Below are positions 1,400 to 42,291 of a stretch of 64,000 nt of DNA, in pieces. A program made the position numbers and the translations under genes. How positions within the stretch are numbered: the stretch's first letter is position 1; each line of letters starts with the position of its first letter. Source of the DNA: Eledone cirrhosa (lineage: Eukaryota); contig OZ024743.1 of NCBI GenBank assembly GCA_964016885.1, forward strand, positions 188,232,001-188,296,000. The letters run 5' to 3'. A model generated the notes under the pieces. That model was not told the origin of the DNA, searched no databases, and saw only the letters and a program-made list of their open reading frames with translations.

Positions 1400-2540
1400 A
1401 TCAAGTCTCCCTGAGTGAGCGACACTGAGAATCAAGGACTCCAAACGATATAGCAAGTGTTGGAGGAAGTTTTATGCCTATGACACCTTTGATTCCTAAG
1501 ATGATTCACTGTGGATGTTGGTTATCCGTTCATCTTCAGTACATACATGAAGTGTGCAGTGTGAATGATCTGGTCTTCTATCTTGCTGCATTTACTCTGG
1601 ATACATGTAAGTTCATTTCTTATGTCCAGTTTTAGCACAAAGGGGTGAGGGCTGACATATAATACACAAACAGGTCTCTGCTGGCAGCTTTCCTATAGAA
1701 GTTGGTGCATATATTGCCTTCTTCTGTTATTCTAACTTGTAAGTCCAGCAGAGACAAGGAACCATTTTTATCAGGGTGTTCTATGGTGAATCTTATATTG
1801 TTATCTATGTTTGAGAATGTCATGGATATTATGTCAGCCTCTTCACAGGATGATGTGAGGATGAGTATATCATCTATGTATCAGGTGAAGAAGGCAGGTG
1901 TTGAGCACTGAACATTCCAGCTTGTTCTTCTAGATGGTGGCCAGTAGGCTTGGAAGACTAGATCCCATGGTTAGGCCTGTTGTTTGTTTGTTTTTATGTG
2001 TGGTGTTGGAAAGTGAAGTATGTATTAGCTATTATGACAGATAGAAGTTGATGTGTGTCTGGTTGAGTGAGGCTGAAGCAGTATATATTGTATAAAATGA
2101 TGCAGTCAGTCACTTGTCAGCTGGATGAGCGGGTACTGTCATGTAAAAAGAGATAAAATTGAGGCTGAAAGTATATCTACTGAGTTTAAGTTGGTTAGGT
2201 TGTAGTTGATGAAATCTTTGTATGACCTGTTCGATCCTGCTGACATGACTAGGAAAAGTAAAAAAGTATAGGTTTGAGGATCTGGGAGAGAAACCAGGAG
2301 ATTTTATAGAGTGGACCTTCTATACTACAGATTATAGGCCTAATCTGGAGATTAACACTGGCTTTGTGGGTTATAATGAGGTGGTAGAATGTTGGCAGTC
2401 TGCTGTTTCTGGTGGTGAAGTTGTTTTTATACTTGTTGGGAAGTTGTTTCCATCTACAGATATCTGTCCAAGTGGTGTTGATGTGGTCTTCAATTTGGTA
2501 TGCAGCTATGTCCATCCCTTTTGTATATAGTTCACCATTG
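1400..2540 (-). mobile_element. Degenerate Penelope-like element RT region
   Basis: ORF 2249-2515 has PTFYHLIITHK...IRPIICS (PLE RT N-terminus). GLTMGS at ~1960-1978, *YIDDILI at ~1860-1883. ORF 1632-1823 has FTIEHPDKNGSLSLLDL (thumb). Multiple stops and frameshifts. Confidence 0.75.
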
Positions 2541-4496
2541 CTAAGGTGTTTGTAAATGATAGTAAAAGTAAGGAGATAAAAATTTAACGTACATATATAT
2601 TCGAATTAGGTATTTACATATAACTAGGATAAATAGTTACATTTATGAGATGTGATATAACCAATGCTGAGCATGTTTTGCATGTGTTTAAAATGTACAA
2701 TATTTTTCTACAGTATTCAAATCAGGAAAGCCATTTATATTTCAAAATGAATAAAGTTTATTAAATAAAAGTCTGAAGAAGGTAATTTAGTAATATATGT
2801 AAACAGATTAAGAAATTGAAATGGACATTATAGTTTAAGGTCAAATTGATAAATTCAAATATTCTAGCAGGAAGTAAATGGTGGTCCAATATTGATGACT
2901 CCATTGCATGTTTATTGAGGATATATAAAGAAAGACTATAATTAGTGTAAATAACATGCACAATATACCTAAAGGTTACATACACATATATCTTCACATA
3001 CATACACATACCTACACATGCATTCACACACATACATTCTTTTATGTTATTTTACTGGTTTTACTCATGCGGGGCATCGCTTAAAAGAGATTTCATTGAT
3101 TATATCAACTCCAGTACTTAATTCTTTTTCAAGCTAGATATAAGGCCACACAAATTTGGTAGAAATTGCAACCAAATTTTCCTCAAATCAGTCACAATTA
3201 TCTTAGCAGCCTTGTATTGTAGCTAGAGTGAGGGCAGAGTGGGAGCATTTCTGGCATTTCTTATTTCTGCTGGCAAGAAAGGATTCTCTTTCTGAAGGAA
3301 AGGCAGACTATATGATGTTTATGTACAAACTGTGATGCTACATACTAACAAGATGTGAGCTTTGGAAGCAAGGGTTTTGCAATGACTGGAAAGAAATGAA
3401 GCCTATATGCTATGTTAGATGTGTAATGTTAGTGTACATCAAGGTTTCCCAAACTGGGAGATACCACCCACCAGTGAGTGATTTCAACTTTTGAGTGGTT
3501 GATGAGCAACTAAACAGAAAATGGTGAGCGATTGGAAATATTTGTGTACTAGGATATCCCCTAACACATTTAGGAGGGCAGTAACTCTGAATAAGAATTG
3601 ACTTGAACTGTAACAAAGACTTCAACGCATGCCAGCATTGGAGGCAGTTGTAAAAGCATTATGATAATATGTGTGTGTGTGCATGTGTGTGTGTGTATCT
3701 GTGCCTGTACATGCATGTGTGTGTGTCTGTGTGTATGTCTGTGTATACTTGTGCTTGCGTATGTATGTCTGTACCTGTGTATGTATGTGTGTGTGTACAA
3801 ATACACATATGCTTGCATGCATACATTCACACATGCATTTATACATATATATTTTATATAATAGCTTTGATCGATTCACTCTATTTTTATGTGTTGTATT
3901 CAATTAAAAATTGTTACTATATAACATAATATACGACAGGTTTTGAACCTTGAAGAAAATGTCAGAAACAGTCTCGTTTAATTTAAACGGTACATCAAAA
4001 TAAATTCCAGACAGATTAATTGCTCTTTTTATGTAAAAGTATCAAACTCAAAGACAAAGTATTAAAGCATTTTGAAGTTGTTACAATTCAGTATATTGTG
4101 AAATGGCTCTTTTAATCTGTAGATTTGAGAAGAAATCTGAACTTCTGACATGAACATATTTCAGTTTTTGCAGTAGGGCATGAGAATCATTTATGTAATT
4201 GGAAACCTTCTGTGCTTCATTTCTTTAGATGGTAACAGTGTGTGACTTTAGTCTCTTTAGATTTCCTTGTGAAAAAGAATGACATCCGTATAATACAACG
4301 TGATAAATCAGTACTATTAACTATTGTGTATATGTCACTTATAATTATGATGTAAATATAAAATCAATATCAAGATATTAGAAAGCGCCATGCACATAGA
4401 TCACTATTTCTGTGTCCAACATTTAATTCACATTTCCTGTCTATCTATCTATCTATCTATCTATCTGTCTGTCTGCCTGGCTATTTATGTCTCCCT

Positions 4497-28362: not shown

Positions 28363-28731
28363 TGTAGGCGTCATGACAAAAAACACACAGTCCACACTGT
28401 AATGTGGCCGTGTAGGTAACACGGTAAAAACCTCCCAGTACACACTGTAAACGTGGTTGGTGTTGGGAAGGGCACCCAGCCGTAGAAAACTCGCCAGACG
28501 TGTAGGTGTCACGACAATAAAACACACAGTCCACGCTGTAATGTGGCCGTGTAGGTAACACGGTCAAAGCCTCCCAGTCCACACTGTAAACGTGGTTGGT
28601 GTTAGGAAGGGCATCCAGCCGTAGAAAACCCGCCAGACCGTCCTGAGCAAGACAACCGATCTTGCCTCAAGTGGGACAATTCCCGTCCAGACCCATGCTA
28701 GCGTGGAAAATAGACGTTAAACGATGATGAT
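28363..28731 (+). mobile_element. Family C RTE-tailed short element with internal tandem duplication
   Basis: A ~138-bp block (tgtagg..acacacagtcc..GGAAGGGCA.CCAGCCGTAGAAAAC) is present twice, then CCCATGCTAGCGTGGAAAATAGACGTTAAACGATGATGA. Flanked by (TA)n. Confidence 0.75.
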
Positions 28732-28757
28732 ATATATATACATATATATATTCTATA

Positions 28758-28819
<62 letters not shown>

Positions 28820-28976
28820 TGGAATAAATGCTCTGAAATAGCGATATATATGTGAATATAGACATAGAATATTCGAAAATATTCTGTATGTTTATAATAA
28901 ACATTTTGAAGACCTAATCGCTATAGAATAGAATACGTCACGTATTACAATTAGATTCTCGATAAAAGCAAGGGAA

Positions 28977-29019
28977 GTAATCTACGCGTTTCATTCTTGT
29001 TAGAAATCTTCAGGACTAC
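28977..29019 (-). ncRNA. Minimal type I hammerhead ribozyme motif (array copy 1)
   Basis: Reverse complement reads gtagtc-CTGAAGA-tttctaacaagaat-GAAA-cgcg-TA-gattac. Confidence 0.8.
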
Positions 29020-29286
29020 ATATCCAGTGCTTTTATCGAGAATGACACAGCTAGAGACTTATAGAATACTTAGCTGTGTACAGGAACTGGTTTGAAAGAG
29101 CGGTTGCCGGTCCGGCAGAAATTAGAAATTGGAATAAATGCTCTGAAATAGCGATATATATGTGAATATAGACATAGAATATTCGAAAATATTCTGTATG
29201 TTTATAATAAACATTTTGAAGACCTAATCGCTATAGAATAGAATACGTCACGTATTACAATTAGATTCTCGATAAAAGCAAGGGAA

Positions 29287-29329
29287 GTAATCTACGCGTT
29301 TCATTCTTGTTAGAAATCTTCAGGACTAC
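29287..29329 (-). ncRNA. Minimal type I hammerhead ribozyme motif (array copy 2)
   Basis: Identical to copy 1, 310 bp further on. Confidence 0.8.
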
Positions 29330-29596
29330 ATATCCAGTGCTTTTATCGAGAATGACACAGCTAGAGACTTATAGAATACTTAGCTGTGTACAGGAACTGG
29401 TTTGAAAGAGCGGTTGCCGGTCCGGCAGAAATTAGAAATTGGAATAAATGCTCTGAAATAGCGATATATATGTGAATATAGACATAGAATATTCGAAAAT
29501 ATTCTGTATGTTTATAATAAACATTTTGAAGACCTAATCGCTATAGAATAGAATACGTCACGTATTACAATTAGATTCTCGATAAAAGCAAGGGAA

Positions 29597-29639
29597 GTAA
29601 TCTACGCGTTTCATTCTTGTTAGAAATCTTCAGGACTAC
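29597..29639 (-). ncRNA. Minimal type I hammerhead ribozyme motif (array copy 3)
   Basis: Identical to copy 1, 620 bp further on. Confidence 0.8.
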
Positions 29640-30071
29640 ATATCCAGTGCTTTTATCGAGAATGACACAGCTAGAGACTTATAGAATACTTAGCTGTGTA
29701 CAGGAACTGGTTTGAAAGAGCGGTTGCCGGTCCGGCAGAAATTAGAAATTGGAATAAATGCTCTGAAATAGCGATATATATGTGAATATAGACATAGAAT
29801 ATTCGAAAATATTCTGTATGTTTATAATAATTGTAATACGTGACGTATTCTATCCTATAGCGATTAGGTCTTCAAAATGTTTATTATAAACATACAGAAT
29901 ATTTTCGAATATTCTATGTCTATATTCACATATATATCGCTATTTCAGAGCATTTATTCCAATTTCTAATTTCTGCCGGACCGGCAACCGCTCTTTCAAA
30001 CCAGTTCCTGTACACAGCTAAGTATTCTATAAGTCTCTAGCTGTGTCATTCTCGATAAAAGCACTGGATAT

Positions 30072-30114
30072 GTAGTCCTGAAGATTTCTAACAAGAATGA
30101 AACGCGTAGATTAC
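30072..30114 (+). ncRNA. Minimal type I hammerhead ribozyme motif (array copy 4)
   Basis: Stem I GUAGUC/GAUUAC, core CUGAAGA at 30078-30084, stem II UUCU/AGAA, GAAA at 30099-30102, palindromic ACGCGU stem III. Predicted cleavage after GUA at 30108. Confidence 0.8.
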
Positions 30115-30381
30115 TTCCCTTGCTTTTATCGAGAATCTAATTGTAATACGTGACGTATTCTATTCTATAGCGATTAGGTCTTCAAAATGTTTATTATAAA
30201 CATACAGAATATTTTCGAATATTCTATGTCTATATTCACATATATATCGCTATTTCAGAGCATTTATTCCAATTTCTAATTTCTGCCGGACCGGCAACCG
30301 CTCTTTCAAACCAGTTCCTGTACACAGCTAAGTATTCTATAAGTCTCTAGCTGTGTCATTCTCGATAAAAGCACTGGATAT

Positions 30382-30424
30382 GTAGTCCTGAAGATTTCTA
30401 ACAAGAATGAAACGCGTAGATTAC
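30382..30424 (+). ncRNA. Minimal type I hammerhead ribozyme motif (array copy 5)
   Basis: Identical to copy 4, 310 bp further on. Confidence 0.8.
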
Positions 30425-30546
30425 TTCCCTTGCTTTTATCGAGAATCTAATTGTAATACGTGACGTATTCTATTCTATAGCGATTAGGTATTCAAAATGT
30501 TTATTATAAACATACAGAATATTTTCGAATATTCTATGTCTATATT

Positions 30547-30578
<32 letters not shown>

Positions 30579-41333: not shown

Positions 41334-41790
41334 ATAAAACATGGGCAAATACTTAGAAAAACACATCAAGAAAATCAAAAAAAGATATAGATAAATGAAA
41401 TAGAAATTGAAATATATAAAAATCTATCAAGAAGTATAGTTAGGTGTGTGTATATGTATGTATATACGCCCACAGATGTGCATATATGTATATGTGCACA
41501 TGTAAATGTATAGTGAGAAAGTGTGCGTAATTCTAAAATATGTATCTATATGTCTGTATTATACAGACAGAAATGGTTACATCGTAAATATATGAATATG
41601 AAAATGAAAGCGCGCGCATAAAACGCCTGGACACTCGTACGCTTAGATGCCGAAAGAAAGGAGGTAAAGGGAGTGTAATAATTAAAAGAAAAGTATCAGT
41701 CTCGATATATTTATAAAAATATAATAACGATAAATTAGAAAGAAAAGATATTAGAAAGAAAAAATTAAAGAAAACAAGAGAAAATCAAAC

Positions 41791-42291
41791 TTGAAAACAA
41801 GAGAAAATCAAACTTGCTCCTGTAGAATCAAAAGTGAATGCCCATTACAAGGTAAATGCAACACCAAAGCCATTGTATATGCGGTTAAAGTGACAACCAT
41901 CAGCAACAACCATCCAGCCACCAGTGAACGATATGTGGGTATGACGCAAGACAGATTCAAAACGCGTTATTACTCACATGTCGCATCCTTTCGACATCCA
42001 GAAAAAAGATTTACAACAGCTCTGGCTAGCAGAATTTGGGATTTGAAAGACCAAGGCATCCAATATAAACTAGATTGGTCAATTTTGAACCAATCTAAAA
42101 AATATGCTAGAGGAACAAGAAAATGCACGCTCTGCATAAATGAAAAATTTTGGATATTGCAAAATCTTAAATCACCAAAGACCTGCCTGAACACAAAGAC
42201 GGAAATTTTCACCAGTTGCCCACACATGAAATCACACCTGCTTTCCAGCTCATATAAACTTAACACACTTTCAGATACTTATCCTCCATAA
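41791..42291 (+). CDS. GIY-YIG endonuclease domain (C-terminus of the PLE ORF, 5'-truncated, no ATG start)
   Basis: CSC...CPLQGKC...IVY...YVGMT..RFKTRYYSH..SF...CTLCINEK...LNTKTEI..CPH is the Penelope/Poseidon-type EN pattern. Frame uninterrupted. Confidence 0.85.
   Translation: MKTRENQTCSCRIKSECPLQGKCNTKAIVYAVKVTTISNNHPATSERYVGMTQDRFKTRYYSHVASFRHPEKRFTTALASRIWDLKDQGIQYKLDWSILNQSKKYARGTRKCTLCINEKFWILQNLKSPKTCLNTKTEIFTSCPHMKSHLLSSSYKLNTLSDTYPP

Follow-up and report, generated by a model that had tools for sequence, protein, structure and literature searches.

How does a short repeat with no coding capacity come to lie in a genome as two tandem arrays that run in opposite directions from a single junction? 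This question is raised by a locus in a 64,000-nt stretch of the Eledone cirrhosa genome (contig OZ024743.1, positions 188,232,001 to 188,296,000, forward strand; hereafter the window), where units of 310 nt carrying a hammerhead ribozyme motif are embedded in a (TA)n tract. The locus is very probably a recent insertion of a non-coding repeat of the type called retrozyme, more precisely a retrozyme without long terminal repeats (non-LTR), and it is one of at least about 1000 near-identical insertions of a young family. As to its origin, we favor, with a probability of roughly 0.7, that the enzyme of a Penelope-like element (PLE) primed on both target strands and rolled round a circular monomer RNA.

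In the window, the two arms are mutually inverted, with a complementarity of 100% over up to 730 nt (Table 1). Because the left arm is antisense and the right arm is sense, the RNA 3' ends of both arms point outwards. A first-pass annotation, made from the sequence alone, had described about 3.3 direct and about 2.3 inverted units joined through TAA, and the measured lengths of 3.27 and 2.35 units at a period of 310 agree with this. Its description of the units as nearly identical, with two substitutions, also proved correct; both are in the right arm, at 29854 and 30490. The same applies to their non-coding nature and their position within (TA)n, as the circularised unit has a GC content of 34% and its longest stop-free stretch covers 59 codons (46 antisense). 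The circular unit folds better than dinucleotide shuffles (z = -4.8) and so does the antisense strand (-4.6), and with values this similar the fold score does not choose the strand.

Exact pattern searches in the genome gave 11,838 matches for a 27-nt core, 20,193 for the tail and 997 for the long end joined to TA, with 0 matches for each reversed control. The genome-wide search proposed in the annotation thus found multimer arrays, and these are spread over many contigs. Arms have a median length of 2.5 units and a maximum of 27 units. Units within one arm differ at 0.07% of positions in subfamily A and 0.31% in subfamily B (312 nt, 95% identical); the same genome also holds a subfamily C (317 nt, about 75% identical). 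For the counts below, 38 A loci were obtained from a similarity search scoring 39 of 187 candidates, and 39 B loci from a search scoring 39 of 532, to which two chance finds were added and from which one duplicate was removed. A further 19 insertions were taken by position order on contig C1 (14 + 5, the first listed core and tail matches) and 20 loci from the long-end list (three early new entries and the next 17 in order). Left out were L134, whose junction and flank are the same as those of L117, as well as L066 and L139 (N at the end), and, from the inner-end counts only, L193. L117 and L134 lie about 470 kb apart on C1, and the pair is probably a segmental duplication that followed the insertion. 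Mosaic A/B haplotypes were seen at L048:5690-6010, L291 and L304, fixed over the whole array in the latter two, which suggests that unit variants recombined before amplification.

Metazoan non-LTR retrozymes consist of low-GC, non-coding units that are 150-450 bp long and repeated in tandem, each with a type I hammerhead whose palindromic helix III is weak (Cervera and de la Pena 2020, PMC7229834; Li et al., bioRxiv 10.64898/2026.07.22.740005). They are dispersed as dimers to multimers, and PLEs have been proposed as the mobilising partner (PMC7229834; bioRxiv 10.64898/2026.07.22.740005). All these sequence features are common to the 310-nt family: the unit length falls within the range, the arrays are dispersed multimers, and the units are non-coding with a GC content below 50%. 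The loci mapped showed no LTR-like flanking repeat; no search aimed at a primer binding site or polypurine tract was made in them. The differences are that RNA circles were shown in the metazoan retrozymes, whereas the 310-nt family is known from DNA, and that the pair 10.1-11.1 of the hammerhead is U·U in the window haplotype.

The evidence on the enzyme lies in the outer ends of the arms. Head-to-head fold-backs make up 97 of 116 loci and the opposite arrangement 0. In detail, 96 loci comprise 78 in the order antisense-then-sense, 0 in the reverse order and 18 single-armed, and the last 20 position-ordered loci contain 19 antisense-then-sense fold-backs. Two classes of ends were defined on the first 38 loci, short (S, unit position 123-141) and long (L, 159-172). 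Among 76 fold-backs with both ends readable, 71 combine one S with one L end, none is SS or LL, and 5 are atypical; in the last-20 set, S stands opposite L in 19/19 fold-backs. Combined, the rule of one S and one L holds in 90/90 classifiable fold-backs, with out-of-sample counts of 28/28, 14/14 and 19/19. As a consequence of this rule, a tail of 26-35 nt is found across the family at one outer end only, and in the window it includes a hairpin motif that is conserved in subfamilies A, B and C. Subfamily C, 25% diverged, mostly ends at the same two aligned sites (judged by eye, uncounted). TA-rich flanks adjoin 149 of 171 outer ends, and among 42 loci with impure flanks, short target duplications were found in L187 (about 11 bp) and L041 (about 7-11 bp). 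Where non-LTR retrozymes have a target duplication, it exceeds 4 bp. The arms overlap by 0-3 nt at 46 of 77 family junctions and by 16-17 nt at a few. The annotation had both arms starting and ending at different phases of the unit; this stands for the inner ends, but the outer ends are fixed sites throughout the family.

Table 1. Features of the inverted 310-nt array in the window. Unit position 1 is window 30109, the base following the predicted cut.
Feature	Position	Strand	Remarks
Left arm	28816-29830	-	1015 nt, 3.27 units, unit positions 167 (outer) to 83 (inner), 0 mismatches; bears the long (L) end; Tandem Repeats Finder: period 310, 3.3 copies, 100% matches
Right arm	29828-30557	+	730 nt, 2.35 units, unit positions 30 (inner) to 139 (outer), with 130-139 ambiguous against the TA run; short (S) end; Tandem Repeats Finder: period 310, 2.4 copies, 99% matches
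Inversion junction	29828-29830	.	TAA, 3-nt microhomology overlap of the arms
Tail	28816-28843	-	28 nt, unit positions 140-167; at one outer end only
(TA)n target, left part	28730-28815	.	
(TA)n target, right part	30558-30578	.	pure TA, hence target duplication unreadable
Type I hammerhead motif	30049-30135	+	predicted cut after 30108; CUGAAGA core at 30078
Type I hammerhead motif	30359-30445	+	predicted cut after 30418, 310 nt beyond the first
Hammerhead motif, left arm	28956-29042	-	H17 at 28983
Hammerhead motif, left arm	29266-29352	-	H17 at 29293
Hammerhead motif, left arm	29576-29662	-	H17 at 29603

Very similar ends are known from endonuclease-bearing PLEs (PAc/Poseidon, PMC11167929; Naiad/Neptune/Hydra, PMC8557442; Adineta Penelope, PMC3846280). 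These, too, have an inverted 5'-truncated copy placed head-to-head, one end with a tail of about 30-40 nt, an AT-rich or (TA)n target with a short target duplication, and a hammerhead upstream of the start sites; the duplications measure 8-10 bp (PMC8557442, PMC3846280). Purified PLE protein, for which a dimer is predicted, cuts and extends both strands of AT-rich DNA, and its reverse transcriptase (RT) has two internal start sites on the RNA, with the genomic 30-40-nt tail between them (PMC11167929). Two end classes are also shown by the coding PLE families of the present genome. We therefore infer priming by a PLE-type enzyme at both ends of the target, each start site being served by one subunit. 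Because the PLE tail and the head-to-head inversion are found family-wide, in every classifiable fold-back, two-ended priming by a PLE can be regarded as highly probable, and the proposal of the annotation that a PLE RT acted from both target ends is supported. The family differs from these PLEs in having no RT or GIY-YIG frame and in arms that are multimers of a small unit, with up to 27 turns. Furthermore, the tail is optional or ‘often’ at one end in the passages of the PLE papers, whereas in the 310-nt family it is at exactly one end. In the twin priming of L1 elements, both target strands likewise prime on the RNA, which leads to an inversion joined by microhomology; there, the site of the second primer varies, and the first cDNA terminates close to it. 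The 310-nt family shares the two-strand priming and the microhomology-joined inversion, but has both sites fixed, and its L arms end at the S site at about the chance rate (8/70, 7 expected).

Regarding the PLEs of this genome, at least six families were sampled, several of them young, and more exist than were sampled. Two frames of 892-905 aa match Pfam RVT_1 and GIY-YIG, a 719-aa PLE frame has no Pfam match, and host PLE copies are 95-100% identical. No RT or GIY-YIG frame was found in the unit, nor, at the loci checked, in direct continuation of an arm, and the unit occurs in arrays of its own and not solely as the pseudo-LTR (pLTR) of a coding PLE. At L102, L110, L236 and L037, arrays lie beside PLE frames; since TA runs separate them from these frames, we read the arrays as nested insertions. 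The 905-aa family was considered as the partner and set aside: its distance from cut to long end is similar (about 165 nt), which is a lead only, and a 14-nt likeness to unit A is lost in C and not significant (p 0.26). Two PLE remnants lie in the window itself. One is a young PLE endonuclease end at 41755-42291 (+), 95-100% identical to the 150 best-scoring copies, and the other an older RT fragment of a second PLE family at 2249-2605 (-). To the left of the insertion, between TA runs, window 28363-28729 holds a 139-nt sequence twice in tandem and then about 90 nt that end with a short ATG repeat; the segment resembles, and may be, the 3' end of a short or long interspersed nuclear element.

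We then consider the ribozyme. Every full unit in the window bears a type I hammerhead motif with a palindromic ACGCGU stem III, as annotated, and the core nucleotides are complete in 5/5 full motifs. The motif is made up of CUGAAGA, a U·U-closed stem II, GAAA, CGCG, UA, a 6-bp stem I, an internal loop and a 15-bp distal stem. A small palindromic helix III needs a second copy to function (PMC4209133), and the isolated stem III palindrome duplex is predicted at -9.5 kcal/mol; nested folding cannot model this kissing dimer (probability 0) and is hence uninformative there. The hammerhead region as a whole folds with z = -5.2, and 0/200 shuffles were equally good. In a comparison of 17 haplotypes, both sides of the pair changed between A/B and C in 10 of 21 stem I pairs, and 99.7% of cells are paired, versus 39-48% in slid registers. 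MAFFT misplaced the core gap in alignment A1, so covariation was counted in stem I alone. The canonical CUGAUGA is the majority form with 84% of depth in sequencing run X1, and therefore the CUGAAGA haplotype of the window is a minor one. A Watson-Crick pair A10.1-U11.1 is present in some A haplotypes (7% of depth, run X1) and in subfamily C.

What kind of RNA served as the template? The arms run across the predicted cut site and neither stop nor carry scars there. Of 171 inner ends, 3 are 5 nt or less from the cut (5.5 expected), and no 11-nt window of inner-end phases is enriched (p = 0.14). Across the cut, 633 readable passes contain 11 sporadic substitutions and 0 sporadic indels; a control stretch has 13 variants in 656 passes. 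Both arms exceed one unit in 54/70 fold-backs, and arm lengths are uncorrelated. At the same time, array-specific haplotypes are common to both arms in 44/47 calls: 21/21 for A-type arrays (42 loci; permuted mean 2.1, maximum 10) and 23/26 for B-type arrays (33 loci; permuted mean 3.2, maximum 11). Such sharing was also found in 12/14 arrays with full units on both sides in the last-20 set, and in L190b a private 2-nt deletion is fixed throughout both arms. Because a new variant such as this deletion occupies every unit, a bottleneck of one unit must have been followed by re-amplification. A circle would supply this bottleneck without a stop at the cut. From runs X2, X3 and X6 came a single 340-nt contig each (310 + 30); it fits a closed repeat, but an RNA circle and tandem DNA are indistinguishable in it, and it was not used as evidence.

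Two other families of the genome can be compared with the 310-nt family. Family D (L284:6495-6740, L110:26-164, L189:8520-8736 and others) is a PLE-like end that is abundant and non-coding; its hammerhead begins at an initiator (Inr)-like site, and a TATA box lies about 28 nt ahead of this site. Its short fold-backs are centred within about 10 nt of this site (7 read on both strands), and multimers were not seen. Such a pattern would be expected of a linear template whose 5' end is fixed at the putative start site. Some fold-backs of family D carry an extra G, which could be a copied cap, and their outer ends are about 68 nt apart. A coding parent of family D was not found. Window 30015-30103 (unit 217-305) aligns across the centre of the D fold-back L279:4690-4830, antisense arm included (segment score 33, 0/2000 shuffles; whole-unit control 3/500), and A/B may have taken their hammerhead region from such a fold-back. 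Family E (L101:570-1000 minus strand, L184, L065, L044 and others) lies in (TA)n as a tandem hammerhead repeat of at least about 400 nt and has an octamer-like motif; its stem III, ACUAGU, is palindromic. Its colinear similarity to A is weak (score 53 versus a shuffled maximum of 46 in 300); a tail score of A versus E was discarded, as it was driven by TA-rich sequence. The U·U pair at 10.1-11.1 is present in families D and E too, and so recurs in three families. At L173:1150-1790, an insertion appears to start on family E at one end and to continue on subfamily C to a long end, and either a switch between two RNA species or an insertion with a deletion is possible.

Taken together, the following course of events can be proposed. 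An array would be transcribed, paired hammerheads would cut the transcript every 310 nt, and a host ligase would close the monomer. The PLE protein, probably as a dimer, would bind near unit positions 130-190 and nick both AT-rich strands a few bases apart. Judging from the end pattern, copying would start at about 165 from one DNA end and at about 130-139 from the other, without exception, and each enzyme would continue through the ligated cut site over a random distance. As the junctions suggest, the cDNA ends would then be joined by 0-3-nt microhomology or a short fill-in. A more specific version, which we hold to be evenly balanced between true and false, adds that the dimer is asymmetric with one subunit per start site, that both subunits roll round a ribozyme-made 310-nt circle, and that A, B, C and the related E are thereby the genomic record of a viroid-like RNA lineage under selection for its folding.

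Several observations weigh against copying by a PLE enzyme from a ribozyme-made circle. In the case of the enzyme, the tails of five coding PLE families show no significant similarity to the unit tail (p 0.26-0.83), and the partner PLE was not found. In the case of the ribozyme, the 10.1-11.1 pair of the window haplotype is U·U and not Watson-Crick, so that a caveat already raised in the annotation is real. As G10.1-C11.1 is described as highly conserved in hammerheads (PMC4209133), the putative activity of the U·U form is in real doubt, and passages of PMC2837043 and PMC544870 did not settle this point. The stem II pairs have a predicted probability of only 0.15-0.18, and the stem I covariation largely reflects a single split, that of A/B versus C, and not a series of independent changes. 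Covariance models were a check that the annotation had suggested. The best of 4227 Rfam models on the 131-nt region is Hammerhead_HH9 (RF02275), to which the core and stem I align, with stem III reduced to the palindrome and the 10.1-11.1 pair non-standard, but the match reaches 16.5 bits (E 0.083) against a gathering score of 52 and is thus sub-threshold. Rfam gave no hammerhead match in 4.5 kb at E<=1, the matches being low-complexity microRNA models only, and none of the 19 matches of subfamily C is a hammerhead. Additionally, 8/9 Xenopus dimers did not cleave (bioRxiv 2026.07.22.740005), and in PAc uncleaved RNA was the dominant in vitro substrate and hammerhead mutants still inserted (PMC11167929). 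In the case of the template, inner-end phases are unevenly spread (10-bin chi-square p = 0.006). L299 switches haplotype after four turns of one arm, the arms of L136 differ in haplotype, and 3/26 B calls are discordant between arms. Because variants recur at periods of 2-6 units in L031, L045, L046 and L049 (4/38 A loci), some array length comes from later DNA-level duplication or from multimeric templates. The concordance of both arms could also partly mean that one haplotype was dominant at a given time.

Some of these points lead to another explanation, in which two-ended priming by the PLE is the same, the template is a long uncleaved multimeric transcript, the circle is unneeded and the ribozyme is weak or idle. 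The in vitro preference of PAc, the U·U pair, the multi-unit periodic variants and the mixed array L299 would all fit, and a homogeneous parent array would yield a homogeneous daughter. Nevertheless, many haplotypes, indels included, are fixed in every unit on both sides of the junction, most partial variants occur once only, and stem I variants keep pairing. Moreover, no arm was seen reading through the inversion junction of its parent; more than one inversion was found only in L193 of 96 loci, and there the array repeats its own junction. Altogether we consider the uncleaved template unlikely. A cleaved linear monomer, copied into multimers by jumps from the 5' end to the 3' end of the same or another monomer, would give the same one-unit bottleneck, and template switches between haplotypes do seem to occur (L299; the mosaics L291 and L304). 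It predicts stops and ragged joins at the cut, whereas inner ends are no more frequent there than expected and sporadic indels are missing from all readable passes, and family D shows that arms can pile up at a fixed site. The linear monomer is thus largely refuted and very improbable.

Amplification at the DNA level is a further alternative, that is, a satellite growing by slippage or unequal exchange and inverted by palindrome self-priming or by a template switch in replication. Self-priming has been proposed for PLE inversions (PMC3846280) and local amplification for retrozyme units (bioRxiv 2026.07.22.740005), and both the multi-unit duplications in some arrays and the few junctions on internal inverted repeats, those with overlaps of 16-17 nt, could be explained in this way. 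A satellite, however, cannot yield so strict a pairing of one S with one L across about 1000 dispersed sites. The inner ends of a junction also show no relation in position (median circular distance 77 nt; <=15 nt in 11/77, 7.7 expected), therefore most junctions are not hairpin turns, and we give this explanation very little credence. As for a fold-back read or an assembly artefact, the window junction is bridged by no contig in four public runs, an absence that in itself is not evidence. In an artefact, a single phase and mirrored flanks would be expected at the turn, whereas this locus has unique flanks and two substitutions between its arms. In run X1, the antisense and sense strands are joined at other phases in up to 12 short contigs, with depths of 3-27 and short sides of 20-29 nt. 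A one-off artefact, which the annotation had itself put forward as a danger, is excluded by the same end rule in 90 loci with unique flanks, and an artefact of any sort is hardly credible. Copying by a PLE enzyme from a circular RNA is thus the explanation that we retain.

Inverted arms, fixed ends and a tail are not reported in the passages from the main text of PMC7229834, where the terms ‘inverted’ and ‘tail’ are absent; in those of bioRxiv 10.64898/2026.07.22.740005, ‘tail’ is absent and ‘inverted’ occurs in one reference title only. Retrozyme repeats are said to show no motif pointing to a partner (PMC7761336), and their PLE origin was argued from co-occurrence and pLTR phylogeny only, according to passages of bioRxiv 2026.07.22.740005. 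A search of the open literature, with subscription papers, bioRxiv supplements and the supplement of PMC7229834 outside it, gave no report of tails or inverted arms in retrozymes, or of this family. Thus, retrozymes and PLE tails are each known already, and their combination in one family was not found in the open literature.

The questions that the literature leaves open are which enzyme moves animal retrozymes and whether the circle is the template (PMC7229834, PMC7761336), and how PLE tails and inverted copies originate (PMC8557442, PMC11167929). For the former, the family gives a physical signature of the enzyme that moves retrozymes. For the latter, it offers a sharp rule, namely that each start site takes one subunit and that SS and LL insertions do not occur. 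With a 310-nt template and base-resolved start sites, both questions are directly testable in vitro. If the proposed mechanism is true, the family would represent a natural rolling-circle, DNA-primed reverse transcription that writes tandem circle copies into TA repeats. Should the asymmetric dimer on a ribozyme-made circle be true as well, each of more than 1000 insertions would record one circular RNA variant.
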